Source: a bacterium
Lineage (GTDB): Bacteria; Krumholzibacteriota; Krumholzibacteriia; Krumholzibacteriales; Krumholzibacteriaceae
Assembly: GCA_020350885.1 (NCBI GenBank)
Contig: CP070727.1
Span: forward strand, 757,007 to 821,006
Length of the DNA: 64,000 bases
Reading direction: 5' to 3'
Positions within the stretch are counted from its first letter, which is position 1, and every line of letters starts with the position of its first letter. Shown one piece after another: positions 31,411-64,000 of this stretch. The notes below the pieces were generated by a model. It was not told where the DNA came from, searched no databases, and saw only the letters and a program-made list of their open reading frames with translations. The position numbers and the translations under genes are program-made.

Positions 31411-34400
31411 TTACCGCAGGAGTATCAGCTTCCGCGTCTCGCTGAAGTCGGCGCTCTTCATCCTGCAGAAATAAATGCCGCTCGAAAGCATGCGGCCCTC
31501 GTCGTTCAGGCCGTTCCAGACGGCGGTGTAGGTTCCGGGCTCGTGAATCCCCCGCCTGAGGATGCGCACGAGTCGGCCGGCGATGTCGTAGATACGAAGG
31601 CTCACGGGGCCGGATCTGCCGACCGAATAGGTGATCCGTGTCGAAGGATTGAAGGGATTCGGGTAGTTCTGGTGAAGCCGGAATGGGTAGCTCGGCGTTG
31701 GTCCGGACCTTTCAATCCCCGTCACCACACGTGACGAGAGGATAAAACCGTAGTTCTTCGTTTGATAACCACCGAGGTTGTAGTCGTACTCGGGATTGAG
31801 CTGGAGCGCGAATACGTCACGGCGTCCGTCGAGATCGTCCGGGGCCGGATCGAACGTATACTCCATCGCTGTTCCCGTGGCCACATTGATGACGCCCGTC
31901 ACACCGGGGCCGATCGTGGAGGTCGTATCGGAGCCGTCATAGTATTTCAGACTCTTACGCCCGTAATCCATGACCTCGATGAGGGCGGGATTCATGCTGT
32001 TCTCGATCCGGTGTACGATATTCCGTGTAGCGCCCAGCCGGTTCTCGACACGGTAATCGACGGCAAGTCCCCCGGCGACCGGATAAAACGACTTCACGAA
32101 TATGAAGTCGCCGCTCACGAAGCTGAAGCGTACGGAATCGTCCAAAACGGTCGTCGTGAGCTCGTCATTCAACAGGTTCACGATCTCCATACCACCGAAG
32201 GTGAAGAATTCATTGAAACACTTCTTTCTGATTCCGTAGCTCCGCTGCCACGGCTGGGCCGCCTGATACTGGTACGGTGCGTTCCACGCGTAGTCGACGG
32301 TGTAGTGGTAGTCGTCGTTGTAGGTGCCTCCGGTATAGTGATCCCGCCACCCGATGTAGTAGAGTCCCCACATGAAGAGCTCGTTCCCGACGAGCTCCTC
32401 CCCCCGGCCGAGATCGAACCAGTAGAGGAGCCGGCCGCCGTACGGGCTGAAGACAAAGAGGTTCTCCGGTGTGACGAGGATGACATCCTGGATAGAGTCG
32501 CCGTTTGCATCCTGCATCAGGATCTGCGGATCTACGACCGGTGAGGCCGCATACTCGGCCGCCAGGCACGATGCCTCGATCGTCTCGAGCTTGTGGTAAT
32601 CCTGGCAGTAGAAATCGCCGCAGTTGATGCAACCGAACTCGAACTGGTGCGCGGCATAGTTACGTAGTGCATGATCGATGAGCCTGATGCCGGGCAGACT
32701 CCCGTTCGCTGCGGCCTGTGCGGCCTGCACACGGTTGCGCCACCCATCGTAGAAATCACGGTAAAAAGCCAGAAGGGGGGAGTTCTCGTTGAAGTCGAAC
32801 CAATCCTCGTAGCCGGCATCCTGCGACGGACCCACCATCCAGTTCGCCTGCCCGTCGACGATCGGTGAGAGCATCTCGGTGGGGTGGCGTGTCTCCAGGT
32901 ATTCGCTGAAGGTCGTGAGCTTCACCCAGCTGAGACCCTCGAGGACGTCGAGGACGTGATCGAGGTTGTCCCAGTCCGGCTGGGGATCCTCCCCGTGCTC
33001 GTAGTCCCAGAGCCCTGTCGCTTCGGCATCCTGGCAGTAGCAGACGACATAGTCGCGGTAGGTATCCTCCGAATGCAGCCACGAGAGGTAATCGACGAGA
33101 TCGTCCGTGTAGCCGGAGTCGATCGCCCCGTCGAGAAGCCAGATCATTGCCCCGTCATCATTGAATATAACGAGCTCTTTGATTCCCAGGTTCGTCTTTC
33201 GTACCGCAAACTCCGGCATCGTCGTGCCGCTGTCGTAGAGGATATGGGTCTCGACCCAGGTCGCAGTGTAACCGTTATCGGCAATGAGGGGGACGAGCTG
33301 CTGCTTCCAGCACCGTTCCGCGTTCCAGAAGCTCACGGGAGTCGTTGAGACCGAACGCTCGATCACCGTACGCTGCACGTCGATCTGCACGTTGTTGTCC
33401 CACATATGTGTTGAGTACGGGATGTTCTGGGAGTAGGTGCTCCCAACGATCTCGAACTGACCGTCAGCGGCACCCGCACGGAGCATATCTATCGTCGAGG
33501 GATTGTGCCTGAAGTCGTACCAGAGCAGATCGTGCAGCAGCGAGCCCGAGAAGTGGAGCATGAATTTCGATCCGGGGTGCTCTCTGAGCACCTTCACCAG
33601 CCCATTGAAACAGACATCGTTCGCCGTATCACCCTGAAGGTTCAGTGTCTGATTGGCATGAAAGAGGAGAACCACGTTGAGCTTGCCGGGATCGGCGGTT
33701 CTATCGACTGTGATATCCCCCACCGCCCGATCGGCGGCGAGCCCGGCGAGGTCGATCCCGCCCAGCCTGTAGCGGTAATTCCCATTCGGTACTAATACAC
33801 CAAGAGAATCGCTTCCGTCCCAGAGGACACTCCGGTAGCCCGGATCGAGGAGCGATGCCGTGAGCAGCCGTTTGACGAGGGCTCCGCCCGATGTGCGTAT
33901 TTCGCAATCGACGTACACCGGCTCGGAAAGCCTGAAGGAGATCCTCGTGACATCGTCCTCTGAATCTCCATCCGGCGAGATGAGCGCCGGTGAAGCGAAG
34001 TTTTCGAAAATGACGGGTGCTACATCGTCTGCCAGGATATCGAAATTGTACTCTCCCGAACCAGGGGATCTCGTCGTATTGATCCGGTCCGAGGCAGTGA
34101 TGTGATACAGAACCGTCCGGCCGGCGATAGCGAACGATGCCGGGATCTCGGCATACCATTCGTTCTCGAGGCCTTCAAGGAACGGTGCATCATACTGATC
34201 GCCGCTACCGAACGCCCGGTAGTTGAGTTTGGCCTCGTAAACCTCCTCGTCATCGGTGATCGTCGCCGTAACGATGACCGGCCGGTTCGCCGGCTGATCC
34301 ACGACACCCCCGTGGACGATCACGGGGGGAATAAAATCGAGATCGACCGTGAAGATGGACGAATCGGCATGGGCCGCTCCGGAAGTATTTGCCACCGCTA

Positions 34401-35664
34401 TCCTCAGCTCGTGCTCGTCTTCCTCGAGGGAATCGACGAGGGTATAGCGCACCTCCTTTTCAACCGCATCGTAGTGCGACGGCCCCTGGGCGACGAGTGC
34501 ATCATCGATGTATAGCTTTATCTCGTCGAGGTCGAGCGGCGTGCTCTCGGAATGGGCGATCGATGCCGAGACCGTGGGACGGGAGGTGCCGATCACCGAG
34601 CCCTCCATCGGGCTCAGGTAGTACACGAGAGGATCACGGATGAAGAGGTACGAGTTGTAGTTATCGTTGGGATTGACGTCGGGATTCAGGGGATCGCTCA
34701 ACCAGATGTGGCCGTCTTGGACGAACTTGTACTCCTGATAGCTTTGCGGCAGCTTTTTGTCGATCGTCCAGATGCTGTCGCCGTCCGCATCCGACATCGG
34801 ATCGATTGCGGTGTCTATCACACCACCCGAGGGGTTGCACCAGCCGTTGAAGTCGCCGGCGAGGTTTACCGTCGATGCATCCGGCGCATAGAACCTGAAG
34901 CGCACGACGACCGAATCCGCCCCGGCGCCGATCGGGTCGGGTACGCCGTTTCCGTCCTCGTCGTAGCCAATGAGAACGGGATTGTCGAGGCTTAAGAGAT
35001 CGCTATCCTGATCGGCACCGAGCTCGTCACCGCTCCCCGCCCCGAGGGGTGTCGATGGGTCGAACTTGTCGGGGGCCCACCCGAGCCCGGCCGCAACCCT
35101 TATCCATCCGTTCACCTCGGTACCGATAACACTCCATGGGATGGTGATCTCCCAGCCGCCGATGCCGTTACTGTTGTGCCAGCCCTCACGAGAGGCGTTC
35201 TGCGAACCCGATATATGCACGGTACTTCCATCCCCCTGGATCTGCCGTACATCCGCACCGATCCCCGCCTCCATATCGCACACGGCGTGTACGAAGTCGG
35301 GATCCCATCCCTCACCCTGCGTACTGAAGCCGGGATAATAGTCGTTCTGCTCTACGCCGGTCGCTCGGGTGCTCGAGTCGATATAGATGAGGAAGACGTT
35401 ATTCACCGAGCTGTAGCCCTCGACACCGACGTAAAGGTTCGAGAGGTCCCAGCTCACATAGAGGTTCACGAGATCATTGTTCGGCCCCCAGGGTACATCG
35501 GTGTTAGAGGCCCTGAGCTCGAAGACGGGATTCCATTCACCGATGGAGAAATCACCGTCGACGACGATCGCACAATCCGCCGCCGCCGGAATGATGACAG
35601 TGATCGTCGCAGGAACGATGAGCGTGATCAGTGCTGTAACGAGGAGTGTCCGCTGCAGAGCCAT
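31411..35664 (-). CDS. Secreted multidomain GH57-family alpha-glucan enzyme (CBM9/DOMON-like, CBM48, Ig, internal FlgD-Ig, GH57, C-terminal FlgD/Por tail)
   Basis: F.FYAPDA.TV.LAGDFNGW (CBM48); FHANQ, FWNAERCW, CQDAE, AHQFEFG match the GH57 conserved regions; LHQNYPNPFNP tail. Confidence 0.78.
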   Translation of the reverse strand: MALQRTLLVTALITLIVPATITVIIPAAADCAIVVDGDFSIGEWNPVFELRASNTDVPWGPNNDLVNLYVSWDLSNLYVGVEGYSSVNNVFLIYIDSSTRATGVEQNDYYPGFSTQGEGWDPDFVHAVCDMEAGIGADVRQIQGDGSTVHISGSQNASREGWHNSNGIGGWEITIPWSVIGTEVNGWIRVAAGLGWAPDKFDPSTPLGAGSGDELGADQDSDLLSLDNPVLIGYDEDGNGVPDPIGAGADSVVVRFRFYAPDASTVNLAGDFNGWCNPSGGVIDTAIDPMSDADGDSIWTIDKKLPQSYQEYKFVQDGHIWLSDPLNPDVNPNDNYNSYLFIRDPLVYYLSPMEGSVIGTSRPTVSASIAHSESTPLDLDEIKLYIDDALVAQGPSHYDAVEKEVRYTLVDSLEEDEHELRIAVANTSGAAHADSSIFTVDLDFIPPVIVHGGVVDQPANRPVIVTATITDDEEVYEAKLNYRAFGSGDQYDAPFLEGLENEWYAEIPASFAIAGRTVLYHITASDRINTTRSPGSGEYNFDILADDVAPVIFENFASPALISPDGDSEDDVTRISFRLSEPVYVDCEIRTSGGALVKRLLTASLLDPGYRSVLWDGSDSLGVLVPNGNYRYRLGGIDLAGLAADRAVGDITVDRTADPGKLNVVLLFHANQTLNLQGDTANDVCFNGLVKVLREHPGSKFMLHFSGSLLHDLLWYDFRHNPSTIDMLRAGAADGQFEIVGSTYSQNIPYSTHMWDNNVQIDVQRTVIERSVSTTPVSFWNAERCWKQQLVPLIADNGYTATWVETHILYDSGTTMPEFAVRKTNLGIKELVIFNDDGAMIWLLDGAIDSGYTDDLVDYLSWLHSEDTYRDYVVCYCQDAEATGLWDYEHGEDPQPDWDNLDHVLDVLEGLSWVKLTTFSEYLETRHPTEMLSPIVDGQANWMVGPSQDAGYEDWFDFNENSPLLAFYRDFYDGWRNRVQAAQAAANGSLPGIRLIDHALRNYAAHQFEFGCINCGDFYCQDYHKLETIEASCLAAEYAASPVVDPQILMQDANGDSIQDVILVTPENLFVFSPYGGRLLYWFDLGRGEELVGNELFMWGLYYIGWRDHYTGGTYNDDYHYTVDYAWNAPYQYQAAQPWQRSYGIRKKCFNEFFTFGGMEIVNLLNDELTTTVLDDSVRFSFVSGDFIFVKSFYPVAGGLAVDYRVENRLGATRNIVHRIENSMNPALIEVMDYGRKSLKYYDGSDTTSTIGPGVTGVINVATGTAMEYTFDPAPDDLDGRRDVFALQLNPEYDYNLGGYQTKNYGFILSSRVVTGIERSGPTPSYPFRLHQNYPNPFNPSTRITYSVGRSGPVSLRIYDIAGRLVRILRRGIHEPGTYTAVWNGLNDEGRMLSSGIYFCRMKSADFSETRKLILLR

Positions 35665-38714: not shown

Positions 38715-39434
38715 TCAGTCGGCGTTCACCTTGAACCAGCCGTTCGGTGAGAGGGCCTCCTCTTCGAGTCCCTTGTATCCTTTGATATTCCAGAGATAGA
38801 TGGAGTCGGGTTCGAGGATGGTTGCGAGTGAATCGGGCACGACCCATGTACTGTCCTCGATCCGCTCCGCCCAGTAGATTTGTGTGAGATCAGCGGTGAA
38901 GATCTCAATGGAGTAGTACTCGTTCTCCCGCCGGGGATGCCAGCTGAACTGCTCGGGTACACGTTCTATTTCACCGAGTGGCGCCTCGAGTGTGATGCCG
39001 TACTCGACTACGGGCTCTCCACGCATCGGGCCGAATCCCGGTCCGAATCCGGGCGAAATACCCGACCTTTCGACTGCGAGGAATATGAGAATAACCGCCG
39101 CCGCAGCCGCAATTGGGGCCAGCCAATTGAAACTCAAACGTGTTACGGGAGCCTGCCGGCTCTCCTTTTTCCGTACCGCGACCGTAGGGAGAATGCGTTC
39201 CTTGAGGGCCCGTTCGAGCTTGAAGCAGGCCTCGGACCAGTTCGCTTCCTCGGCGAGCTCCCGGTCGGAACCGATCCGCTGAAACCGCCGGATGCGCTTG
39301 ACCTCGAGCCGGCACAGCAGGCATGAATCGAGATGCTGCTCGAGCCGATCAGCCGTGTCGTCTTCTGCACATCCACAGGCATACGCGGTCAGGATCTCGA
39401 GACCAGGATGCTCCGTGAAGTTATCCCTATCCAT
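38715..39434 (-). CDS. Membrane anti-sigma factor: ZAS (HxxxCxxC), TM, extracytoplasmic Ig/FN3-like domain
   Basis: HLDSCLLC; TM WLAPIAAAAAVILIFLAV; ATG 39434 overlaps the sigma stop by 8 nt. Confidence 0.82.
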   Translation of the reverse strand: MDRDNFTEHPGLEILTAYACGCAEDDTADRLEQHLDSCLLCRLEVKRIRRFQRIGSDRELAEEANWSEACFKLERALKERILPTVAVRKKESRQAPVTRLSFNWLAPIAAAAAVILIFLAVERSGISPGFGPGFGPMRGEPVVEYGITLEAPLGEIERVPEQFSWHPRRENEYYSIEIFTADLTQIYWAERIEDSTWVVPDSLATILEPDSIYLWNIKGYKGLEEEALSPNGWFKVNAD

Positions 39435-40014
39435 TTCCAAACCCCTCGTGTTCAATGAGCCGCTTGAACTTTCTTCTGGCGTTCTGCAGGAGGGTGCGTG
39501 CCCCCGTAATATTCTCACAACCCAGTATCTTTGTAATCTCATTCACCGTCATTCCATCCCTGTAGTGGAGGATGAATACCTCCAGCTCATCACCAGGTAT
39601 GAACTCCCTCGCGGAGGCCAGAATGCGTTCGAGATCGCCGACCAGGCCGAGCTCCCTGTCAAACTGATTATCGACCGGGTCGGGCACTCCGTCTGCATCC
39701 ACCGAGAGCAATCGCCGCCGCCACTGTTCTCGCTTCTTCGCAAGCTCGCTGAGACAGTGGTTGCTGGTGACCCGGTATGCCCAGGTCGAAAACATCGAGA
39801 GACCGGAGAACTTGGCGATGTTCCTGAATATCTTGATGAATATCTCCTGGGTGAGATCAACGGCCTCCTCCTCATCGTGCGTATAATTGTAACACCAGAG
39901 ATAAATCCGCTTACTGTATCGCCTGAACAACTCCGTGCAGGCTTCCTCAGAGGCGCTCTCTGCGATGATACCCGAAAGCTCCTCGTCGCTTGCACACCGT
40001 ATCTCTGTGTTCAC
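39427..40014 (-). CDS. ECF sigma-70 factor
   Basis: Region 2 DLTQEIFIKIF..FSTWAYRV..NHC; region 4 HTH. Confidence 0.93.
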   Translation of the reverse strand: MNTEIRCASDEELSGIIAESASEEACTELFRRYSKRIYLWCYNYTHDEEEAVDLTQEIFIKIFRNIAKFSGLSMFSTWAYRVTSNHCLSELAKKREQWRRRLLSVDADGVPDPVDNQFDRELGLVGDLERILASAREFIPGDELEVFILHYRDGMTVNEITKILGCENITGARTLLQNARRKFKRLIEHEGFGNG

Positions 40015-40079: not shown

Positions 40080-43000
40080 TTAGTCTAACTCCTGTGAATC
40101 GTATATGATATTCCCATCACCAACCAGTACAAAGGTGGCCCAGAAAGCAGTTCGCCCCGAATCCCTCCACCCGAGTGCCTCGAGCTGGGTATCCCTGAGT
40201 GCCGAGGCGGCGGCGTTTCCCTCGCGGAGCCGGCGATAGAAGGAGAGCATGAACCGTCCCGTATACCGGTCGGGGACATCCATCTGCGTGGCGAGCACAC
40301 CGTGCGCTCCGGCATAGAGGAACGCCTGGGTGAGACCTGTAATCCCTTCCCCATAGGCCAACACGCCACCGGCCGACTTGCATCCTGATAGAACTACAAG
40401 AGATGCATTGAGCCTGAGCCCTGCCACCTCGTGCCACTGGAACAGTCCGTCCTCGGTAGCTATTTCAACCATATCCACCGAGCCGTCGCGAGTAGCACGC
40501 TCCTCCCTGCGCATCCGTGCATCATCACCGGATCTTCCCGGCAGGATCCCGAACTCACTTTCAGGATTCAAGACGATGAAGGAACGTCTTACATCCTCGT
40601 TATCAACATAGATATGGGAAGCGATGTGAATAATCTCGGCGTTCCCGATGGGGCTCTCTTTGAATGAGCGCTCACCGGCACCGGTACCGGTCAGAATGAA
40701 GGAAGAGGGGAAAAGGCGTGCAACGGACCGTGCCTCCTCCGATGCATGGGGGAGCAGTTCAATCGGAATGTCCGTGAATGGGTAAACACGCTTGCGTTTC
40801 AAGGTACCCGTGTTGCCGGCTCCCTCGGCACCGAGAGCGATAATATCGTAGTCCAAATGCTTCCCGCCCTCACTTCGTGAGGCGAACCGACGTCTGAGGT
40901 ATGATAGGGACCGTAGCGAGGGAGTGTAATAGATCCGGTGCCGTTCGACCAGATAGCCTTCGTCACTGCGGAGCAGGGAGAAGGGAAGGCGGTTGAGCAA
41001 TCCGTCAGGCACGATAACGAGCGTTTCTCCGTCTAGATCCCCCTCCACGGGGCCCAGCAGCAGTTCATAGAGCTCCCGCTCGGCCGCGTGGAGAACTCCC
41101 GCCGGCAGGGAGTACGAGGGACGGGATAGCCGTTTTCCGGTTTCGACCGCCTCCTCGTGGGTCTGCCTGAGCAGCTGAAGAAACCGTCCCACGCGCTCCT
41201 CGATCTCTTTCCGTGGCGGGAGTGGATGAATCGAGAAGATACCTCCCCGAACGCTGAAGAGGTATGAACCCTCCCGCCCGAGGAAGTACGACAGCATCCG
41301 CTCGGATTCACGGAGACTGGCAACGAGCCCATCGAGCTCATCACCGGCAGGATAGAGCGCCGCCGTGTATGCCTCGTTCTGAGCTGCCATACGAACACGG
41401 AGCCCGACGAACTCCCGCTCGAGAGCAGTGACCTGATCCAACAGTTCACGGCGCTTCTCTCCCGAGATCGAACCGTCCTGGAGCCTTCCCTGTAGGAACG
41501 TGAGCTTGGCGATGAGATCCCGTTCCTCACCCACGAGCTCGCCGGCACCACCCCGTTCGATTCTATGCAGGGCCTCCCGCATGAGTGCAGCCAGTATCTG
41601 TGCCCGGGCGCGCTCGGTATACGTGAAAGCCCGGCGTACCGCCCCCCGATCCTCACCCGTTTCGAGGATGAGGGATACCATGAGCTCGTAGGGAACGATC
41701 GCTGGCCGCAGCATGTGGCGCTGGAGCTCGTCGAGCCCCACGCTCCGTCTGAGCGATTCAACACTCACTATCGCACGTTCGAGCATGGAGGCAGCCTCTC
41801 CGTAATCCCCACGTCTGTAGTACAGCTCTGCCAGCCTCACCAGAGATTTCCAGACCAGTTCCTGCAACCCGTTCTCGTCAGCGATAGCCAGCGCATCTCC
41901 GGTCGAGGCGAGTGCTTCATCGATCGATATATCGGTATTACCATAGAGATAGAGTGAACGTGCCTGGATATGCGCCTCCCCCTTGTCAGCCAACAGCCCG
42001 ATTGATCCCTCCAGCATCGCGCGGGCCCGAGCGGATTCCCCGCGCTGGATGTAAACGGAGGCAAGGTTGTTGGTTGCCCAGATCAGGTCAGAGCGATCCT
42101 GGGTTCCGCTCAGCACATCGAGGGTTCGCCGATAGAAGGCCTCGGCGAGATCAGGCCTTCCGGCGGCCAGATAAACCGAACCCATGCCGCTCGTGACGCG
42201 AAAGAGGAGATCACGTTCGTTGCGATCCGTGGCGATGGAAAAGGCACGCTCGTAATGCTTCATCGACTCCGTGTAGTTACCGAGATAGAAGTAAACCGAA
42301 CCGATGCTGAAATGAACGGCGCCAACACCGACACTGTCCCCCAGTTCCTCGTAGATCGCCATCGCACGATGCTCATGGGCAAGGGCCTCCCGGTAGCGGC
42401 CCTGGAGATCGTAGACCATACCGATCGAATTGAGACACCAGGCTACACCCTTGCGGTCACCTAGCTTCTCCCTGACCTCGTAAGCCTGCCGGTAGAACCG
42501 TTCGGCTTCGGAGAAGTTACCCAGGTTGTGGTTCGCCAAAGCGAGACCGCCCAATGTCCAGCTCAGACCGTAGAGGCTTCCCATCTCCTCGTAGACAACG
42601 CGACACCGCTCGTAATGGTCTATCGCTTTGGAATAGTCACCGAGCATCGTGAGATTGTAGCCGAGCCGAAGGCGCGCACCGAGCGCCCCCCAGCGGTTCC
42701 CCCCGTCCGTGTGACGTTCCAGCGACTCTGTGAAGAGATCGAGCGCCTCTTGCCGCTCACCCTCCGCCTCCGCTATCGCACCGAGCCCATAGAAGACATA
42801 ACCGAGGAGCCAGCCCGACCGACACGACACCGCAAGCTCGCGTGACTCCTCTAAGTGTTCCTTCGCCGTAGCAAGGTTGCCCATCCGCGTTTCGGCCTGC
42901 CCCAGGTTGTTGAGGATCGCTGCGGTCCTTTCCACGGTGCCGAGAACGCGTTCCTCGACGAGGGCCCCGCGGTACAGCTCGGCCGCTTCCCCGATCCGCT

Positions 43001-43835
43001 GCTGCTTCTCGCGGATTCGCCCCAGGCCATTCAGGCAATAGCTCCGAACCTGCCGGTGACCACCTTTCTCGGCCCGGCCGAGTGCTTCCCGGTACAGACT
43101 GTCAGCGGCTACCAGATCGTCCGTCAGGTTTTGCGCCTCGGCCCGAAACGCCGCCAGCTCGGCATCCATGCGAAGGAGGAAGTGTAATGCCTTTTGCAAT
43201 ACAGGAGTACGGTCGTCCGGCTTGTCCGCCCTCTCTACTACCCTGGCGGAGAGTAACTCGATACATTTCCCCGCATCGGTTACGGCACGAAATGCGGCGT
43301 CTGGATTACGGGCTCCGAGGAAGCTCTGCGCCTCGCGCCTTCTGAGCACAGCCGCTGAAAGTGTATCGCCCGCGCCAAGCGCAAGCAGCGCCGCCTCACC
43401 GTACGCATCGCCGGCAGCCGCAAAGTCCCGTGCGATGTGGTGCTTCAATGCGCCCGTGTAGAGCTGCAGCATATCACAGTGCGGTTCGGTTTGACCCTCC
43501 GCACAATCCTCAAGAAACGCGATTGCACTATCACTCCGGCAGGATCGCAATTCCGCTTCGACGAGCCCCTCGGCTATTTCGATCCGGCAGGGATCTTCCA
43601 TGACGAATCGCTCGAAGAAGAGCAGTGCTGCAACGTTATCACCGGCATCGAGTAAAAGCGCTCCTTCGCCTGCTCTCTGGAGGCGTTCCTCGATACCATC
43701 CGAACGCTCGGATCCGCCGTATCCGGGGTGAATGTTACGATTCTGGTATGTTCTTCTGGAAAATCCGGAAAAGGGCACGGATAGTATTAAGACGAGAATG
43801 AATAAAGACCGGGCAGTGGATGTCAAACGTTTCAT
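40080..43835 (-). CDS. TPR-CHAT caspase-like protease with N-terminal signal/anchor
   Basis: MKR+LFILVLILSVPF N-terminus; more than 10 TPRs; IVPDGLLNRLPF, IHIASH (His 40614-40616), LSGC (Cys 40380-40382), FWATFVLVGD. Confidence 0.93.
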   Translation of the reverse strand: MKRLTSTARSLFILVLILSVPFSGFSRRTYQNRNIHPGYGGSERSDGIEERLQRAGEGALLLDAGDNVAALLFFERFVMEDPCRIEIAEGLVEAELRSCRSDSAIAFLEDCAEGQTEPHCDMLQLYTGALKHHIARDFAAAGDAYGEAALLALGAGDTLSAAVLRRREAQSFLGARNPDAAFRAVTDAGKCIELLSARVVERADKPDDRTPVLQKALHFLLRMDAELAAFRAEAQNLTDDLVAADSLYREALGRAEKGGHRQVRSYCLNGLGRIREKQQRIGEAAELYRGALVEERVLGTVERTAAILNNLGQAETRMGNLATAKEHLEESRELAVSCRSGWLLGYVFYGLGAIAEAEGERQEALDLFTESLERHTDGGNRWGALGARLRLGYNLTMLGDYSKAIDHYERCRVVYEEMGSLYGLSWTLGGLALANHNLGNFSEAERFYRQAYEVREKLGDRKGVAWCLNSIGMVYDLQGRYREALAHEHRAMAIYEELGDSVGVGAVHFSIGSVYFYLGNYTESMKHYERAFSIATDRNERDLLFRVTSGMGSVYLAAGRPDLAEAFYRRTLDVLSGTQDRSDLIWATNNLASVYIQRGESARARAMLEGSIGLLADKGEAHIQARSLYLYGNTDISIDEALASTGDALAIADENGLQELVWKSLVRLAELYYRRGDYGEAASMLERAIVSVESLRRSVGLDELQRHMLRPAIVPYELMVSLILETGEDRGAVRRAFTYTERARAQILAALMREALHRIERGGAGELVGEERDLIAKLTFLQGRLQDGSISGEKRRELLDQVTALEREFVGLRVRMAAQNEAYTAALYPAGDELDGLVASLRESERMLSYFLGREGSYLFSVRGGIFSIHPLPPRKEIEERVGRFLQLLRQTHEEAVETGKRLSRPSYSLPAGVLHAAERELYELLLGPVEGDLDGETLVIVPDGLLNRLPFSLLRSDEGYLVERHRIYYTPSLRSLSYLRRRFASRSEGGKHLDYDIIALGAEGAGNTGTLKRKRVYPFTDIPIELLPHASEEARSVARLFPSSFILTGTGAGERSFKESPIGNAEIIHIASHIYVDNEDVRRSFIVLNPESEFGILPGRSGDDARMRREERATRDGSVDMVEIATEDGLFQWHEVAGLRLNASLVVLSGCKSAGGVLAYGEGITGLTQAFLYAGAHGVLATQMDVPDRYTGRFMLSFYRRLREGNAAASALRDTQLEALGWRDSGRTAFWATFVLVGDGNIIYDSQELD

Positions 43836-46997: not shown

Positions 46998-48203
46998 TCA
47001 CTCTTCATGATGCGGTCCCCGCCGGACCGCATCATGCCCGAACCGCTCGACGATCTCATCGACGGCGCGTTCGACACGTTCCCACTTTTCATCCTCCTGC
47101 GACTGCCCTTCGAAGAGTGTCATCTGAGACTGTGAACCGGCGGATTCGAGATTCGAGACACCCACACCGATGAGGCGAACCTTCGATCCGAGCTGATACG
47201 CCCGGAGGAGCTTCATCGCCTCCTTGAATATGACATCACTCATCTGGGTGGGATGCTCGAGCGTGGCACTCCGGGTATACTGCTTGAAATCGGCATGCTT
47301 GATCTTGATCGTCACCGTCTTTCCCCTGAAGCCCTGTTTCCTGAGTCTCCTGCCGACACGCTCGGATTGTGTACCGAGGTACCGTTTGAGAACCGTTTTG
47401 CTGTCCGTATCCTCCTCGAGTGTCTGCTCGGTACTTATCGATTTCGGCTCCGTATACGGTACGACCGGGGAGCGGTCTTCGCACCGGGCTATACCGAGAA
47501 GCCACGAGCCGAACTTCCCGAAACGCTCCACGAGCCATTCCTCTCTGTGCCGTTCGATATCGCCGACATAATGAATACCGATACGAGTGAGCTGCTCCAT
47601 ACCCTTCACGCCGATTCCCGGTACCTTCTCGACCGGGAGCCGTTCCAGAAAATCATGCACCTCAGCCGGGGGAATCACCGTAAGACCGTCCGGCTTCTCC
47701 ATATCCGAGGCGATCTTCGCCAGGTACTTGCAGATCGAGACACCAATCGAGCAGGTGAGCGAGGTCCGCTCCCGTATCCGTGCCTTGATCTTCGCCGCCG
47801 TCCGCCGGGGATCGCCGAAGAGCTTGCCGGTGCCCGTGAGATCGATAAAGGCCTCGTCCACGGAGACCTGCTCTACGAGGGGAGAAAACTCCTGCAGGCA
47901 ATGCATGACGATACGGGAGACCTCCCGATAGCGCCGCATGCGCACCGGTAGAAAGATCCCTCCCGGACAGAGTCGCTTCGCCCTGAATATCGGCATCGCA
48001 GAGTGCACGCCGAAGGCACGAGCCTCGTAGCTGGCCGCGGAGACTACCCCCCGCCGCTCGCCCCCACCCACGATCACGGGCTTTCCGGCCAGCTCCGGAT
48101 TATCGAGGATCTCGATGGACGCATAGAAGGCATCCATGTCGATATGTGCGATAACACGGTGATCGGAACTCCAATTATTACTCGGCATAGAAGCATCCAT
48201 CAT
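46998..48203 (-). CDS. dinB: DNA polymerase IV
   Basis: HIDMDAFYASIE, ASYEAR.FGVHSAM, SVDEAF, AKIASD..KPDG; start between 48188 and 48203. Confidence 0.95.
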   Translation of the reverse strand: MMDASMPSNNWSSDHRVIAHIDMDAFYASIEILDNPELAGKPVIVGGGERRGVVSAASYEARAFGVHSAMPIFRAKRLCPGGIFLPVRMRRYREVSRIVMHCLQEFSPLVEQVSVDEAFIDLTGTGKLFGDPRRTAAKIKARIRERTSLTCSIGVSICKYLAKIASDMEKPDGLTVIPPAEVHDFLERLPVEKVPGIGVKGMEQLTRIGIHYVGDIERHREEWLVERFGKFGSWLLGIARCEDRSPVVPYTEPKSISTEQTLEEDTDSKTVLKRYLGTQSERVGRRLRKQGFRGKTVTIKIKHADFKQYTRSATLEHPTQMSDVIFKEAMKLLRAYQLGSKVRLIGVGVSNLESAGSQSQMTLFEGQSQEDEKWERVERAVDEIVERFGHDAVRRGPHHEE

Positions 48204-48351: not shown

Positions 48352-50196
48352 CTATCGGAGGACCGCCATCTTCCGCGAGATCGTCTTCACCCCGGCCCTG
48401 AGACGGTAGAAGTAGACACCGGAGCTCACCTGCACACCGCCAGCATCCCGACCGTCCCATGTGACTTCATAGTGCCCCGGCTCCTGGTCTTTATCGACCA
48501 GGCCGATCAACCGCCGCCCGGAGACATCGAAGATCTCGAGAACAACCCTTCCTGCCTCGGGGAGATGATAGCTGAGCGTCGTCACCGGGTTGAATGGATT
48601 CGGATAGTTCTGGTAGAGCGTGAGCGGCAGCCTGGGCTGCTCGGGTGTATCGGAAACCGGGAAGTTATCGACCGAGTATCCGGAGTCGGGACAGGAGATG
48701 TAACGGCTGGTATCCGGAGGATCGGTCACCGCCTGTATGTAATAGACCGACCAGTAGATACCCGCCTCCGTCGAATCACCCATGGTGGGTAGCGGCACGG
48801 TGTACTCGGGTTGCCGGACGGCCGGCACCAGCTCGATGAGATCCCAGCCAGGGGGCGGATCGGTCCTTCGATAGATCTCGTAGCCGGTGACCGCCCCGTT
48901 CGTCCTGTCGAGATATGCCTTTGAGAATGTCATCGATACCCATCCGCCGGTATCGTCGGGCATGTCGGTGATGGAGAGGATGCACGGTGTATAGTTAAAG
49001 AGCGTCTTTTCCGCACGGTTGTTGTCCTCGAAGCATTCCGGCACCTGTTCCAGGTCGTCTGCGTAGACCTTGACATACTGGTTCCAGTCCCGCACGGGCG
49101 GCATGATAAAGTTCGAGTGGACATGAAGCGTCTCCCCGGCGGCAAGGCCACCGCAGTGTATCGTATCCATGATCTCCTCGACCATTCCTTCGCCGGTATT
49201 CCAATTGAAGCGTACCGATGTACGGAAGGGACCTGCCTGGTATTGCCCTGCATTAACGATATCGAAGTCGACGTCGTACGGCGTGCAAGCTTCGTAGATC
49301 CCGTCCGGTTCCACGACGAGATTGCGAGCCCTGAGATCAGGGCAGTAATTTAAGGTCGCTACCGACGGGCAGTTGTGAGGCCACCCTTCGAAATCCCTGA
49401 TGTTATCGGCTCTGAGGGAATAGCTCCCGATCTCCTGCGAGAGCTCGGAGCCGAGATCGACCAGCACCGTCTGGCTGTCGGCAAGCATCGTGACACCGGT
49501 CACGGGAATGGTGCTCTCGGGGTTCCAGGTTTCATAGACACTGTAATGTGAGGGATCCTCCGCCGATGCCTCATCCACCTTGAAGGTGAAGCGTGCCTGT
49601 ATCTGCATCGGAGTCTGAACGACGACCTCCTCGATGTACGGGGTGCAGTGCCCGTACCCTTCGCAGAGGATGGCCGTTGTGCCGTATATCTCGAAGAGCT
49701 CGTGATTCGGATAGTAGGTGCCGCGCAGGTGGCCGCTCCGTGGATCGGGGCCGATCACGATCGGATAATCTATTATATCGCCTCCTCCCCAGCCACACGG
49801 TGCGAGTGTGATGCAGTTGAAGGCGCAGATGAAGTTGTAGCCGTCGGTGAATCCATCGAGCGGCGGCCAGAAGGCGATCGCATGACCCTGCAAAGGATCC
49901 CCGATCCAGATGACCTTACGGTTGGGATAATATGCATCGACAACGATAAATAATGCATGGCTCGGATCGGTCGGCGTCTGGAGCTGGTACTCGACTGCCG
50001 TCACGAAGTGGTTCGCATCGCACAGGTATATATAGGCCGGGAAGAACGTAAACGGCTCCGGCTGTAAAATGGAATGTTCACTGCACCCGGGTGCGCTGAA
50101 ATAGACGCCCATCGTAGGGATTGCGTGAGTGCCGGACGGCACCAAAATAGAGACAGTAATCGTCAGAATTATGGTAGCTAAGAGCCCGCGTTTCAT
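48352..50196 (-). CDS. Secreted Ig-like/CARDB multidomain protein with FlgD/Por-type C-terminal domain
   Basis: Signal peptide; PDL....V.N.G...AG.F..S, ECFEDNN CARDB motifs; LYQNYPNPFNP...SSGVYFYRL tail. Confidence 0.8.
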   Translation of the reverse strand: MKRGLLATIILTITVSILVPSGTHAIPTMGVYFSAPGCSEHSILQPEPFTFFPAYIYLCDANHFVTAVEYQLQTPTDPSHALFIVVDAYYPNRKVIWIGDPLQGHAIAFWPPLDGFTDGYNFICAFNCITLAPCGWGGGDIIDYPIVIGPDPRSGHLRGTYYPNHELFEIYGTTAILCEGYGHCTPYIEEVVVQTPMQIQARFTFKVDEASAEDPSHYSVYETWNPESTIPVTGVTMLADSQTVLVDLGSELSQEIGSYSLRADNIRDFEGWPHNCPSVATLNYCPDLRARNLVVEPDGIYEACTPYDVDFDIVNAGQYQAGPFRTSVRFNWNTGEGMVEEIMDTIHCGGLAAGETLHVHSNFIMPPVRDWNQYVKVYADDLEQVPECFEDNNRAEKTLFNYTPCILSITDMPDDTGGWVSMTFSKAYLDRTNGAVTGYEIYRRTDPPPGWDLIELVPAVRQPEYTVPLPTMGDSTEAGIYWSVYYIQAVTDPPDTSRYISCPDSGYSVDNFPVSDTPEQPRLPLTLYQNYPNPFNPVTTLSYHLPEAGRVVLEIFDVSGRRLIGLVDKDQEPGHYEVTWDGRDAGGVQVSSGVYFYRLRAGVKTISRKMAVLR

Positions 50197-52006: not shown

Positions 52007-52146
52007 AAAGGAGTGTAATTGAAAAGGATAGGGGCATAACCGATTGACGCCTTCGATCCCCTTTGATACAATCCGAATCATCGAACGGCACAGCTCGATT
52101 GTATGCTCCCGGCACATTGCACGTGTCCTCCACAAACGGGATTCTC

Positions 52147-54480
52147 ATGATCGGTAAGACCGTTTCACATTACACAATCCTCGAAGAACTCGGCCGCGGA
52201 GGCATGGGAGTTGTGTACAGGGCCGAGGATGTCAAGCTTCAGCGCACCGTTGCCCTCAAGTTTCTCCCCCCCGAACTCACGAGCGATCCAGAGGCGAAAG
52301 AACGCTTCATCAACGAAGCCAGGACCGCCTCCGCACTCGACCATCCCAATATCTGCACGGTCCACGAGATCGACGAGACGGACGACGGCCAGATCTTCAT
52401 CTGTATGGCCCACTACGATGGCGAACCGCTCAGGAACAGGATCGACCGGGGACCTGCAGGTCTCAACGAGGCATTCCATATTGCAGAGCAGATCGCCGAA
52501 GGTCTCTCCCGTGCGCACGAGCGGGGAATCGTTCACCGGGATATCAAGCCGGCCAATATCATCGTGACGGATCGGGACGAGGTCAAGATCGTCGATTTCG
52601 GCCTAGCGAAGCTCGCCGGAAAGACGAAGCTCACAAAAGAGGGTACAACGCTCGGCACGGTCGAGTACATGTCACCGGAGCAGGCGAGGGGTCGAGAGGC
52701 CGACCACAGAACGGACATCTGGTCCCTCGGCGTCATACTCTACGAGCTGCTTACCGGGAGGCCGCCGTTTAAGGGGGAGTATGAGCAGGCGATAATGTAT
52801 GCGATCATAAACGAGGAACCCGAGCCGATCACCGCCCAACGCGCCGGCATTCCCCTCGAGCTGGACAGGATATGCGCCAAGGCACTTGTCAAAAATCCCG
52901 ACGAACGTTACCAGCATATAAGCGATCTCCTGGTCGACCTGCGGGCGGTACATAAGCAGATAGAAAGCGGCACGACCGCGCAGCCGGCCATTGTGACAGC
53001 GCCGGGGAGGAACAAGTGGCTCAAGCCGGTCACCGCAGCCGCCATTGCCGTCGTCGCATTCGTCCTGGTTTACTTCTACGTCTTGGCAGACCGCAGTGAA
53101 GCGATCGATTCGATCGCCGTCCTTCCGCTCGAGAACATCTCCCGGGATCCCGCTCAGGAGTACTTCGCCGATGGAATGACGGAAGCGCTCATAGCGGATC
53201 TCGCCAAGATAGGCGCACTGCGTGTGATATCACGTACCTCGATCATGCGGTACAAGGAGACCGATCTCGCGCTTCCCGAGATCGCAAAGAAGCTAGATGT
53301 CGATGCGATCATCGAGGGTTCAGTACTGCTGGCGGAAGGTCGTGTGCGCATAACCGCACAGCTCATAGAGGCGGCGAACGACCGCCACCTCTGGGCCGAC
53401 AGCTACGAGCGTGATCTACAGGATGTCCTTGCGCTCCAGCGTGATATCGCAAAAGCGATCGCCCGCGAAGTAAAGGCCAAGCTCACACCCGCTGAGGAGG
53501 CCACATTCGAACGTGCCGGCACTGTCGACCCTCAAGCGCACGAATTATACCTGAAGGGACGTTATCACTGGAACAAGAGGACCGAGGAGGATCTTCGCAG
53601 GAGCATCGAGTACTTTCAGAAAGCCATCGAGAAAGAGCCCGGTTACGCCCGGGCCTACGTTGGACTGGCCGAGACATACGCGGTAATCGCCGACTGGGGA
53701 TTCTCGCCTCCGAGTGAGATGTATCCGAAGGCGAAGGAGACGGCAGAGACGGCGCTCGAAATCGACCCCAACCTCGCCGAGGCACTCACTACAGTTGCCG
53801 CCGTCGAACACCTCTATTACTACAACCATGAAAAGTCGGAGGAAATATACCGTCGTGCCATCGAATTGAATCCGAACTATGCAACTGCCCACCAATGGTA
53901 TGCAGAGTTCCTCTATCATATGGGGCGTTTCGACGAGGCGATCTCGGAGATCAACCGGGCCCTCATGCTCGATCCCCTGTCACTCATAGCTAACGCAGTG
54001 AAAGCTGCGATATATTATTACTCCCGGAACTACGATGAGGCGATCAGGCTATGCAAGGAGAACCTGGAACTCGACAGCAGTTTTTATCTATTCCTCCAAC
54101 TGCTCATGCTGAGCTATCTCGAGAAGGAGATGTACAATGAAGCATACGAGATTACAAAAAAAATGATTATACTTTCGGGCGCCGATGTATCTCTCATAGA
54201 CGAATTCGAAAGAGCATATCGTACCGGTGGGTATGATGGAACTCTGAGATGGCAAATACAAACATATTCCAGAATCCTCAGGCAACCCTACAACGAATCG
54301 TACTACGTCGCCCTGGCATATGCGAGACTGGGATATGCTGATAGCGTCTTTGTATGGCTCGAAAAGACCCTAGAAAACAGTTCCCTCTACATAATGGAAA
54401 TTACCATTGATCCTGCTTTAGATCCCCTACGATCCGATCCGCGATACAACAGGCTGCTGAAAAAGATCAAACTGGATTAG
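52147..54480 (+). CDS. Hanks-type Ser/Thr kinase with TM, TolB_N-like domain and TPRs
   Basis: LGRGGMGVVY, VALK, HRDIKPAN, DFGLA, YMSPEQ; TM; SIAVLPLEN...EYFADGMTE; likely ATG 52147. Confidence 0.93.
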   Translation: MIGKTVSHYTILEELGRGGMGVVYRAEDVKLQRTVALKFLPPELTSDPEAKERFINEARTASALDHPNICTVHEIDETDDGQIFICMAHYDGEPLRNRIDRGPAGLNEAFHIAEQIAEGLSRAHERGIVHRDIKPANIIVTDRDEVKIVDFGLAKLAGKTKLTKEGTTLGTVEYMSPEQARGREADHRTDIWSLGVILYELLTGRPPFKGEYEQAIMYAIINEEPEPITAQRAGIPLELDRICAKALVKNPDERYQHISDLLVDLRAVHKQIESGTTAQPAIVTAPGRNKWLKPVTAAAIAVVAFVLVYFYVLADRSEAIDSIAVLPLENISRDPAQEYFADGMTEALIADLAKIGALRVISRTSIMRYKETDLALPEIAKKLDVDAIIEGSVLLAEGRVRITAQLIEAANDRHLWADSYERDLQDVLALQRDIAKAIAREVKAKLTPAEEATFERAGTVDPQAHELYLKGRYHWNKRTEEDLRRSIEYFQKAIEKEPGYARAYVGLAETYAVIADWGFSPPSEMYPKAKETAETALEIDPNLAEALTTVAAVEHLYYYNHEKSEEIYRRAIELNPNYATAHQWYAEFLYHMGRFDEAISEINRALMLDPLSLIANAVKAAIYYYSRNYDEAIRLCKENLELDSSFYLFLQLLMLSYLEKEMYNEAYEITKKMIILSGADVSLIDEFERAYRTGGYDGTLRWQIQTYSRILRQPYNESYYVALAYARLGYADSVFVWLEKTLENSSLYIMEITIDPALDPLRSDPRYNRLLKKIKLD

Positions 54481-62090: not shown

Positions 62091-62792
62091 TCATGGGAAC
62101 TCGAGAGATGCGGCATCGGATGAACCGATCTCGTCACCCTGCTCGAGGGCGACGACGCGCCAGATCAGCTTGGCTGGTAATTGGGCTGGAAACATTGATC
62201 GGCCAACAATCAGTGCGGTTTCGTTTGTCGGCTCGAGGCGGACGATTTCGTTGAGGTTCCTGTCATAGAAACGCACCTGGTACGCGTCGGCGCCGGCCAT
62301 CGGCGTCCATTCCAGACGGACGCCTTCTCCGGATATCCTCTGTGGTGTACTCAACGTGAGTGGTTGCGAAACTTCGGCTTGCGACGGGCCCCGCAGCACG
62401 GTCTTATCGGGCGTCCACGGGTGCCACCATAACACGCCGTATACGCCGGCTGCGATGATCACCAATAGTGCGGCAACCCACGCCGGACGTAAGTAGAACG
62501 TTTTCATGATTCGCGGTAAAAAATCCTTCCAGGCATGATCCTTTGTGCCGGCTGCATCCCGGACCTCCTCCCGTAGCACTCCGATCTCCGACGCCAGGAA
62601 TGCCGTGAGGCGGGCATCGGCTTCATCCGGATCCGAACCGGCGGTGATTTCCTCATTCAAGAACCCCTGATAAGACGCCAGAATGGCGCTGCAGCGCGGA
62701 CACGCTTCTACGTGACGGCGCGTGGAATCGTCGGCCGGAAGCTCGAGCACTTCCGAAATTCGCTTGACCTCGATACAATCCTTACTCATCAC
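62091..62792 (-). CDS. Membrane anti-sigma factor (ZAS-TM-Ig-like), paralog of 38715-39434
   Basis: HVEACPRC; TM WVAALLVIIAAGVYGVLWW; overlaps the sigma stop. Confidence 0.82.
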   Translation of the reverse strand: MMSKDCIEVKRISEVLELPADDSTRRHVEACPRCSAILASYQGFLNEEITAGSDPDEADARLTAFLASEIGVLREEVRDAAGTKDHAWKDFLPRIMKTFYLRPAWVAALLVIIAAGVYGVLWWHPWTPDKTVLRGPSQAEVSQPLTLSTPQRISGEGVRLEWTPMAGADAYQVRFYDRNLNEIVRLEPTNETALIVGRSMFPAQLPAKLIWRVVALEQGDEIGSSDAASLEFP

Positions 62793-63381
62793 CAGACTCC
62801 TTCAATGCGTTCCTGAGTTTTCTCCGCGCTTTCTGTAATAATCCCCGCGCCCCCGAAGCGGATTCGATTCCGAGAACCCAGGTGATCTCGTCAATCGGCA
62901 TGCGTTCGAAACATCGCAACCAGATTGCTCTCTGCTCTTCCGGTTCCAATGTCGTGCGTATCAGCGTATATATCCGCTCTTCGTATTCGCGTTCCTCCAG
63001 CCGCCTGACGGGATCGGGATTCGGTGCCTGGACAGTGTCGAAGTCGGCCTCGCCTTCCTCGAAAAGGGATACACGGTGCATCTCATTCAAGCAGCGGTTT
63101 CGTGCGATCGCGAACAGCCACGTTGAAAATTTAGACTTGCCGCCGAATGAATCGAGCGCTCTCCAAGCGCGCAGCAATACCTCCTGACTCATGTCGAGGG
63201 CCCGTTCGTGGTCCCTGACATAACGATAGCACCACAGGTATACCGCTCTCTGATAGCGGCCGAGCAGTTCCGCACCGGCCGCCCGGCCTGCTTCGGATTC
63301 AACCAACGACTGTACGATCCGAGCCAGCGCTTCGTCGGTCAAATCCGGGTGCCCTCTGTTTCTATCGGACATATTCATCAA
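62782..63381 (-). CDS. ECF sigma-70 factor, same subgroup as 39427-40014
   Basis: YLWCY, DMSQEV, FSTWLF.IARNRC, GARGLLQKARRK. Confidence 0.93.
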   Translation of the reverse strand: MMNMSDRNRGHPDLTDEALARIVQSLVESEAGRAAGAELLGRYQRAVYLWCYRYVRDHERALDMSQEVLLRAWRALDSFGGKSKFSTWLFAIARNRCLNEMHRVSLFEEGEADFDTVQAPNPDPVRRLEEREYEERIYTLIRTTLEPEEQRAIWLRCFERMPIDEITWVLGIESASGARGLLQKARRKLRNALKESGDE

Positions 63382-63388
63382 AGAAGAA

Positions 63389-64000
63389 TCACGCAGCCGG
63401 GACAGTTTTTTTCATTTTTTTATGTCGAAGCCAAAACGCGAAACCCACAAACACCACCACGGCTCCCACTCCTGCCAGCCATAACGGATTATAATTGCTT
63501 GCCTCGGCGACTTCCAGCTCGACACTTATGTTGCCGTCTCCCACCGCCACGAAACCCGCCCAGTAAAACGGATGACGGGTTTTGCGCCGGGACCGGATAG
63601 CGATCTGCGCTTCCCGAAGCGCCGCCGCCGCTGGCCGGCCCGCATCCAGCGATTGATAAAATATCTTCATCAGGTCCGATGTCACCAGATCGTCCACCGG
63701 CCACAAGGTCGCCACCGTCACGGGAACTCCTGCACTTAGAAAGGCAGAGGTCAATCCACTCAAGCCTTCTCCGACACTCAACCGCCCCAATGCGGATTCG
63801 CAGCCGGACAGCACCACCATCTTTGCACGTATCCGGCTGCCGGCAATATCATTCGCACGAATGTAAGGATCGAGCTGGATGTCGGACGGACCAAGTTCAT
63901 CTCGTTCCGGTGCCGATCTCGAATCGCCGTCATCGACCCTCATAATATCCGTTCGTGCCCTCTGGCCCGATTGCGCCGGAGGCTCTCCCAGGAGGATGCC
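63389..64000 (-). CDS. C-terminal part of a CHAT protease with a C-terminal TM anchor (5' end outside the window)
   Basis: Frame open to 64000; VVLSGCES, GEGLSGL..AFL.AG, TLWPVDD, HPFYWAGFV.VGD; then WLAGVGAVVVFVGFAFWL-RHKKMKK. Confidence 0.9.
   Translation of the reverse strand, partial: GILLGEPPAQSGQRARTDIMRVDDGDSRSAPERDELGPSDIQLDPYIRANDIAGSRIRAKMVVLSGCESALGRLSVGEGLSGLTSAFLSAGVPVTVATLWPVDDLVTSDLMKIFYQSLDAGRPAAAALREAQIAIRSRRKTRHPFYWAGFVAVGDGNISVELEVAEASNYNPLWLAGVGAVVVFVGFAFWLRHKKMKKTVPAA

Follow-up and report, generated by a model that had tools for sequence, protein, structure and literature searches.

What is the role of a short arginine motif that lies just outside the membrane in two predicted anti-sigma factors, each encoded next to a TPR-CHAT protease? 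We discuss this question for a window of 64,000 nucleotides, the whole stretch of Krumholzibacteriota DNA analysed here (contig CP070727.1), for which a preliminary description had read the motif as a predicted cleavage site with Arg-Gly as the scissile bond. Substrates of bacterial CHAT proteases are known for very few systems, and DdvA, so far the only TPR-CHAT anti-sigma factor to be characterised, has a cleavage step and a cleavage site that are both still hypothetical.

Two three-gene modules in the window

On the whole, the window contains two compact three-gene modules, both on the minus strand and both with the motif-bearing gene last. Their features are listed below, where the residue numbering of the two anti-sigma factors follows the gene starts used by homologues.

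40080..43835 (-): TPR-CHAT protease 1, 1251 aa, CHAT (E 4.8e-55) and TPR families; signal-like N-terminus 43746-43835, His1074 at 40614-40616, Cys1152 at 40380-40382
39427..40014 (-): ECF sigma factor 1, 195 aa, Sigma70_r2 E 7.5e-16, TIGR02937 sigma70-ECF 80.7 bits
38715..39434 (-): predicted anti-sigma factor 1, 239 aa (homologue alignment, AF2 model); TM helix 39072-39125, disordered tether 38997-39071, FN3-like ectodomain 38718-38996
39018..39029 (-): motif P-M-R-G of anti-sigma factor 1 (P136-G139), context GPMRGEP, invariant Arg R138 at 39021-39023, pLDDT<50
63389..64000 (-): TPR-CHAT protease 2, C-terminal part, the N-terminus lying beyond the window end; CHAT E 1.7e-34, module CHAT HMM 5.6e-54; catalytic Cys in SGCES 63794-63808, C-terminal TM anchor and basic tail 63419-63490
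62782..63381 (-): ECF sigma factor 2, 199 aa, Sigma70_r2 E 1.1e-18, TIGR02937 86.8 bits
62091..62792 (-): predicted anti-sigma factor 2, 232 aa from ATG 62789 (alignment, AF2 model, FN3 Foldseek matches); HVEACPRC 62691-62714, TM 62427-62486, tether 62358-62426, FN3-like ectodomain 62094-62357
62388..62399 (-): motif V-L-R-G of anti-sigma factor 2 (V131-G134), context TVLRGPS, invariant Arg R133 at 62391-62393, pLDDT<50

Both sigma factors score above the NCBIfam TIGR02937 cut-off of 42.9 bits, and CHAT protease 2 also shows a weak Pfam match to Peptidase_C50 (24.2 bits, under the cut-off). The end of the sigma gene overlaps the start of the anti-sigma gene by 8 nt in both modules (39427-39434 and 62782-62789), which suggests translational coupling of the two proteins. 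The coordinates and translations of the motifs given in the preliminary description are exact: on the minus strand, M-R-G at 39018-39026 is M137-R138-G139 of anti-sigma factor 1, and L-R-G at 62388-62396 is L132-R133-G134 of anti-sigma factor 2.

The neighbours of the modules in the window are ordinary genes, including those for an OMP beta-barrel, GH57, a Y-family polymerase, a Ser/Thr kinase and a beta-lactamase-family protein. Further genes outside the modules encode a 1417-aa GH57 protein (31411-35664), a 614-aa protein (48352-50196), a Ser/Thr kinase with TPRs (52063-54480) and a Y-family (DinB-type) polymerase (46998-48203), and the first two of these have a FlgD_ig C-terminal domain in common. 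The beta-lactamase-family gene, with C-terminal TPRs, adjoins module 2 (60494-61963, +); a second gene of this type lies near the module of locus L018 (845-2212), and the proximity may be a coincidence. A PADLOC scan of the module proteins found no cas match and no defence-system match beyond generic TPR, so that a known defence system is ruled out for the module.

An anti-sigma family with a predicted FN3 ectodomain

The two window anti-sigma factors show no BLASTP similarity to each other (E=1.2). Their profiles do match, with an hhalign probability of 97.7% and E 1.4e-12, and the alignment places PMRG onto VLRG. An exhaustive profile search identifies 406 cluster representatives at E<=1e-30, nearly all of 210-260 aa and full length, and the family was found only in candidate phyla of the FCB group. 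An annotation is thereby gained for at least 406 clusters at 50% identity that are now labelled 'hypothetical', and a signalling module is defined that characterises little-known candidate phyla; no description of the family or of its motif was found in the searchable literature.

Among 178 representatives, each standing for one 50%-identity cluster, the zinc-finger signature HxxxCxxC has its His in 169 and each of its two Cys in all 178, while the upstream ligand column holds C (140) or H (37). The corresponding stretches in the window are HLDSCLLC in anti-sigma factor 1 and HVEACPRC in anti-sigma factor 2. With the Pfam profile zf-HC2 (PF13490), anti-sigma factor 1 reaches 10.6 bits against a gathering threshold of 22.2 and anti-sigma factor 2 has no match, and 14 of 26 family members match weakly with a best E of 9.8e-5; anti-sigma factor 1 has in addition a weak match to the anti-sigma model NF052375. 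Judged by their ligand pattern, these small proteins are of the zinc-binding anti-sigma type, yet they fall below the Pfam threshold.

Following the cytoplasmic part, a single TM helix, a tether and an FN3 domain are predicted, which corresponds to an N-in/C-out single-pass topology. The AF2 model of anti-sigma factor 2 (25-sequence alignment) has the TM helix at residues 102-121, pLDDT<50 at 122-140 and a beta-sandwich of pLDDT about 90 from residue ~145. In the model of anti-sigma factor 1 (9 sequences), the low-confidence residues 108-135 and 137-142, with residue 136 between them, span the tether as well as part of the modelled TM helix, and the sandwich is formed by residues 147-236. Searched against the PDB with Foldseek, the ectodomain retrieves fibronectin type III domains only, by which the earlier wording 'Ig-like' is roughly right. 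In both window proteins the motif lies 12-17 residues past the TM helix and 8-11 residues ahead of the folded ectodomain; the preliminary description had placed it about 10-15 residues past the TM in a flexible linker, in good agreement with this distance and with pLDDT<50.

The ectodomain part of the profile also matches giant proteins of 1800-3800 aa in which the same FN3-like unit is repeated 16-33 times in tandem (P0048, P0069, P0076, P0088, P0130 and P0180). A relationship to DUF928, as suggested in the preliminary description, is not supported: the window proteins have no Pfam DUF928 match at E<=1, nor do 26 family members at E<=10, and in the searchable literature DUF928 is mentioned in a single, unrelated paper.

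An invariant arginine in a drifting linker

That the two linkers share the motif, as first noticed from the window alone, holds across the whole family. In the alignment of full-length sequences the Arg is invariant in 178 of 178 representatives, and it is one of only five invariant columns, the others being the two zinc Cys, a Phe and the Trp of the FN3 domain. The subfamily of anti-sigma factor 1 has GPMRG or NPLRG in 8 of 9 members and PIVRG in the ninth, and that of anti-sigma factor 2 (25 members) has [VA]LR[GS] with the L and R conserved at >=90%.

Counted over the 178 representatives, position -2 is mostly Val (V103, P20, I14, A14) and position -1 mostly Leu (L132, M19, V14, Y5, E3, F2, P2, with Trp also seen), so that L, M or V stands at -1 in 165. 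Position 0 is R178 and never Lys. Position +1 is small or polar (G135, S14, N8, E7, D6, Q4, T2) and never Pro, despite Pro being common 2-4 positions from the Arg. Around this island, the linker columns -10..-3 and +2..+10 hold only 0.6-1.1 bits and are nearly random, and position -3 is P, I, G or T. An anchor-free count finds [LMV]R[GS] in 139 of the 178 linkers, against 13.0 +/- 3.3 expected and a maximum of 27 in 1000 composition-preserving shuffles, which rules out chance or an alignment artefact. This confirms that the motif core is V-[L/M]-R-[G/S], with the Arg as its fixed point, far beyond chance; the motif is kept in every family member recovered.

The spacing from the Arg to the FN3 domain is constrained to 11-20 residues. 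In one locus (L027, 2512-3273, -), a tandem HSPDV-type repeat of about 30 residues (…HHSPAHHSPDVHSPDVHSPDVHSPTDHSPAGGSLVLRG) lies between the TM helix and the motif, and the motif is kept; the distance from the TM helix to the Arg is therefore not strictly fixed, unlike that from the Arg to the FN3 domain.

Linkage to TPR-CHAT protease genes

To view the gene context outside the window, family loci were gathered by contig and locus homology searches together with an unbiased DNA pattern on the zinc-finger motif, and were scored with family and CHAT HMMs. This gives 43 external loci from Krumholzibacteriota, Eisenbacteria, Latescibacterota, Fibrobacteraceae, UBP1 and unclassified MAGs, of which 38 are informative and five are cut by contig or block ends. 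Another 14 matches of the pattern scan, considered as CHAT-less controls, were rejected as chance matches in high-GC DNA that are not anti-sigma genes.

The ECF sigma gene stands immediately upstream of the anti-sigma gene, overlapping it by 8 nt, in both window modules and in all loci, and a TPR-CHAT gene adjoins the pair in 34 of the 38 informative loci as well as in both window modules. Two gene orders are found. In 28 loci, including L001-L020 and others, the CHAT gene lies directly upstream (CHAT-sigma-anti-sigma) as in the window, while in six (L025, L034, L035, L036, L041 and L059) it lies directly downstream (sigma-anti-sigma-CHAT). Two more loci (L049 and L051) end inside a homologous signal-peptide-plus-TPR ORF directly downstream of the pair. 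In all 36 CHAT-neighboured modules (34 external, two in the window) the protease and the anti-sigma factor are separate genes. Since the linkage is kept while the gene order changes, selection on the linkage is argued, and this near-obligate linkage in two orders supports a functional tie of the sigma/anti-sigma pair to CHAT.

The remaining two loci lack a CHAT gene. One is an intact orphan pair in a Krumholzibacteriia MAG (L044, 4689-5887), with no CHAT within -5.2/+2.1 kb; it keeps PVLRG, and the motif can therefore persist without an adjacent CHAT. Other family loci from the same class do have adjacent CHAT genes, and we regard this orphan as weak evidence against the tie. Upstream of it are two large secreted proteins with T9SS-like C-termini, and downstream are small unrelated ORFs, which may belong to a mobile element. 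The other CHAT-less locus (L052, 3-2108, -) has an anti-sigma frame that breaks inside the FN3 domain and continues into an out-of-frame ORF, with the motif kept, and is probably a pseudogene or an assembly error. A comparison of motif conservation with and without a CHAT neighbour, as envisaged in the preliminary description, is thus almost empty and cannot discriminate, because nearly every member has a CHAT neighbour; both CHAT-less loci, one with an intact and one with a frameshifted gene, keep the motif.

Paralogous modules with the same motif occur within one genome, two of them within 25 kb here and at least four (L022, L039, L048 and L052) in the Eisenbacteria MAG MFD05942.bin.1.32. 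It follows that the motif cannot set partner specificity or prevent cross-talk between modules. Tricorn-like, PDZ or S41 peptidase genes lie downstream of two modules (L018 12727-16084, and the contig of P0033) and may be regulon members or alternative proteases.

The proteases themselves look catalytically intact and are predicted to reside in the compartment of the anti-sigma ectodomain. Among 26 module CHAT domains, the His (HxASH) is present in all and the Cys (LSGC) in 25, and nearly all full-length module CHATs have a basic-then-hydrophobic, signal-like N-terminus. Most of them (L002-L058) also have a TM helix and an Arg/Lys cluster right after the CHAT domain, an anchor that is present in window CHAT 2 and absent in window CHAT 1 and its relatives L001, L005 and L006. 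With a C-terminal TM helix and basic tail, the CHAT domain would sit at the outer face of the inner membrane. This predicts a periplasmic location for the module CHATs, with the catalytic domain at the membrane surface where the motif sits. An autoprocessing motif in the protease is ruled out, for no [LMV]R[GS] is positionally conserved in the CHAT domains. The motif is the hallmark of a large unannotated anti-sigma family tied to predicted periplasmic TPR-CHAT proteases.

Related signalling systems

The closest known system is DdvA of Myxococcus xanthus. Its chain 8rot_B (991 residues, E 4.6e-5) is also the sole PDB entry with sequence similarity to the window CHAT domain. In the DdvA-DdvS pair, DdvA is an anti-sigma factor with the arrangement ZAS-TM-linker-TPR-CHAT, for which self-cleavage of the juxtamembrane linker in trans, and then cleavage by RseP, has been proposed and not demonstrated (PMC11506125; PDB 8rot/8rw5). 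By analogy, the modules here look like a split DdvA. Common to both are a zinc-finger anti-sigma domain, a single TM, a flexible periplasmic linker, an ECF sigma partner and a TPR-CHAT with a His-Cys dyad, the linker, the sigma partner and the location being predicted in our case. However, the protease here is encoded by a gene of its own and bears a predicted signal peptide and usually a membrane anchor, whereas DdvA is one polypeptide acting in trans within a dimer, and the anti-sigma factor here, unlike DdvA, has an FN3 ectodomain. DdvA controls a CBASS/CRISPR island, while no defence genes are seen at the modules here. No conserved cleavage motif is reported for DdvA, and reports of DdvA-like proteins are confined to Myxococcota and a single Comamonas (PMC11506125). 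A degenerate DNA pattern aimed at the DdvA locus retrieved Chloroflexia CHAT genes only.

The second system for comparison is Craspase (type III-E), in which the TPR-CHAT protein Csx29 cleaves Csx30 in a flexible loop and frees an ECF-type sigma factor (PMC10028731). Like this Craspase/Csx30/RpoE (CASP-sigma) pathway, the modules combine a TPR-CHAT protease with a sigma inhibitor that has a flexible segment, where cleavage is proposed in our case. Craspase is cytoplasmic, activated by RNA via Cas7-11, free of TM helices and directed to non-conserved sites, in contrast to the invariant Arg motif here. An association with Cas7-11/gRAMP, a CRISPR array or Csx30/Csx31 partners is not seen here; the module proteins have no cas or defence matches and the neighbours are unrelated, housekeeping-type genes.

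As in the RseA/DegS/RseP and RsiW/PrsW/RasP systems, we have here a single-pass anti-sigma factor with a predicted cytoplasmic sigma-binding domain, whose ectodomain would be lost by site-1 cleavage before site-2 cleavage. The site-1 candidate, however, is a caspase-like cysteine protease of the same putative operon, whereas the RseA and RsiW systems use a serine or metalloprotease encoded elsewhere. Separase (Peptidase C50) has a similar helical-repeat plus caspase-like architecture and cuts after Arg in an unstructured motif. Unlike in separase, the ExxR-type acidic P4 is missing here, and a separase-like ExxR context is ruled out by the lack of an acidic residue at -3. As for the sigma factors, a review notes that the ECF54 group has CHAT genes nearby (PMC8999054); the window sigma factors are unlikely to belong to it, because ECF54 is described as actinobacterial and said to lack an anti-sigma factor. 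CHAT does not come up in the main text of the ECF reclassification paper.

Proposed cleavage at the motif and its alternatives

The best-supported mechanism, to which we give slightly less than an even chance, has the cognate periplasmic CHAT protease make the site-1 cut at the motif, with the Arg as the P1 residue, and intramembrane proteolysis and release of the sigma factor follow. We infer all of its steps, namely the signal, the cutting by CHAT at the motif, the bond cut and the site-2 step. A signal perceived through the TPR array, the FN3 ectodomain or both would switch the protease on or bring it into place, and the TPR-CHAT would then cut the tether at the motif, with Arg as P1 and the small residue as P1'. 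After this cut the FN3 domain would be lost and a stub of about 12-17 residues left behind, on which a site-2 (RseP-type) protease could act inside the membrane to free the ECF sigma factor. Because the candidate substrate is small and separable, has just one invariant candidate for P1 and is encoded beside its cognate protease, CHAT-driven regulated intramembrane proteolysis becomes directly testable by one cleavage assay and one point mutant.

We extend this reading, somewhat more tentatively still, to arrays of parallel three-gene switches in FCB-group bacteria, covering Krumholzibacteriota, Eisenbacteria, Latescibacterota and Fibrobacterota. Each anchored periplasmic CHAT would be the dedicated site-1 protease of its own FN3 anti-sigma factor, cutting after the one invariant Arg, and the partner specificity would come from FN3-TPR exosites instead of the cleavage site. 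If true, no earlier CHAT signalling pathway outside the cytoplasm would have had a defined and conserved substrate motif.

Several points weigh against the reading of CHAT cutting after Arg. The preliminary description had argued that several clan CD proteases cut after Arg; this holds for separase, but Craspases, the characterised TPR-CHAT proteases closest in architecture, have their cuts at L|D, M|K and A|S (PMC11106740; PMC11506125), where exosites matter and the local sequence counts for little, so that the clan CD analogy alone does not decide. Such non-conserved sites, dependent on an exosite rather than on P1, count against a CHAT/Arg pair. A further point is the orphan pair L044, which keeps PVLRG with no adjacent CHAT, and another is the presence of the same motif in paralogous modules, which could equally serve a shared non-CHAT factor.

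Among the alternatives, the motif might be a docking or pseudosubstrate element that binds TPR-CHAT uncut, for example to keep the protease inactive or to tether the pair, with signalling through release or a conformational change. TPR domains do bind short linear peptides, securin holds separase as a pseudosubstrate, and the gene linkage and shared compartment would fit equally. Nevertheless we consider docking unlikely, given that a dyad so conserved (His 26/26, Cys 25/26) implies that some substrate is really cleaved, that the anti-sigma factor is the only other conserved extracytoplasmic component of the module, and that a +1 position which never holds Pro is typical of a scissile bond.

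It is likewise improbable that another, shared protease of the envelope (trypsin-like/HtrA, S41/Tricorn-type or other) cuts or recognises the motif while CHAT acts elsewhere in the pathway. The identity of the motif across the paralogous modules of one genome, its retention in the orphan pair L044 and the Tricorn/S41 genes near two modules are all in line with such a protease. It would, however, not explain why CHAT is linked so tightly and almost universally in either of two gene orders, and consistent linkage is not seen for any other protease.

A purely structural role, in which the motif would touch the membrane surface, the FN3 domain or a dimer interface, might account for the constrained spacing of 11-20 residues between the Arg and the FN3 domain. 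This seems very unlikely to us, as AF2 gives neither structure nor contact for the motif segment in either paralogue, a conserved island of four residues in freely drifting, length-variable linkers is typical of a recognition motif, and the repeat of about 30 residues in L027 separates TM helix and motif with the motif still kept.

Returning to cleavage by CHAT, the pattern on the substrate side favours P1 = Arg, i.e. R|[G/S]. The Arg is invariant and never replaced by Lys, position -1 is variable and takes even Pro and Glu (VPR, LER), and position +1 is small or polar and never Pro in spite of frequent Pro nearby; besides, VLERG-type variants keep R-G adjacent and separate L from R. A Craspase-like cut one residue earlier, [L/M]|R, could appeal to the Leu, Met or Ala at P1 of Craspase, to L, M or V at -1 in 165 of 178 and to the preference of RseP for a hydrophobic new C-terminus, as on DegS-cut RseA, but it is scarcely to be expected, with conservation weaker at -1 than at the Arg and with Pro, Glu, Tyr and Trp among the residues there, with L-R split in the VLERG-type variants where R-G is kept, and with Craspase sites that vary among orthologues, unlike the invariant Arg here.
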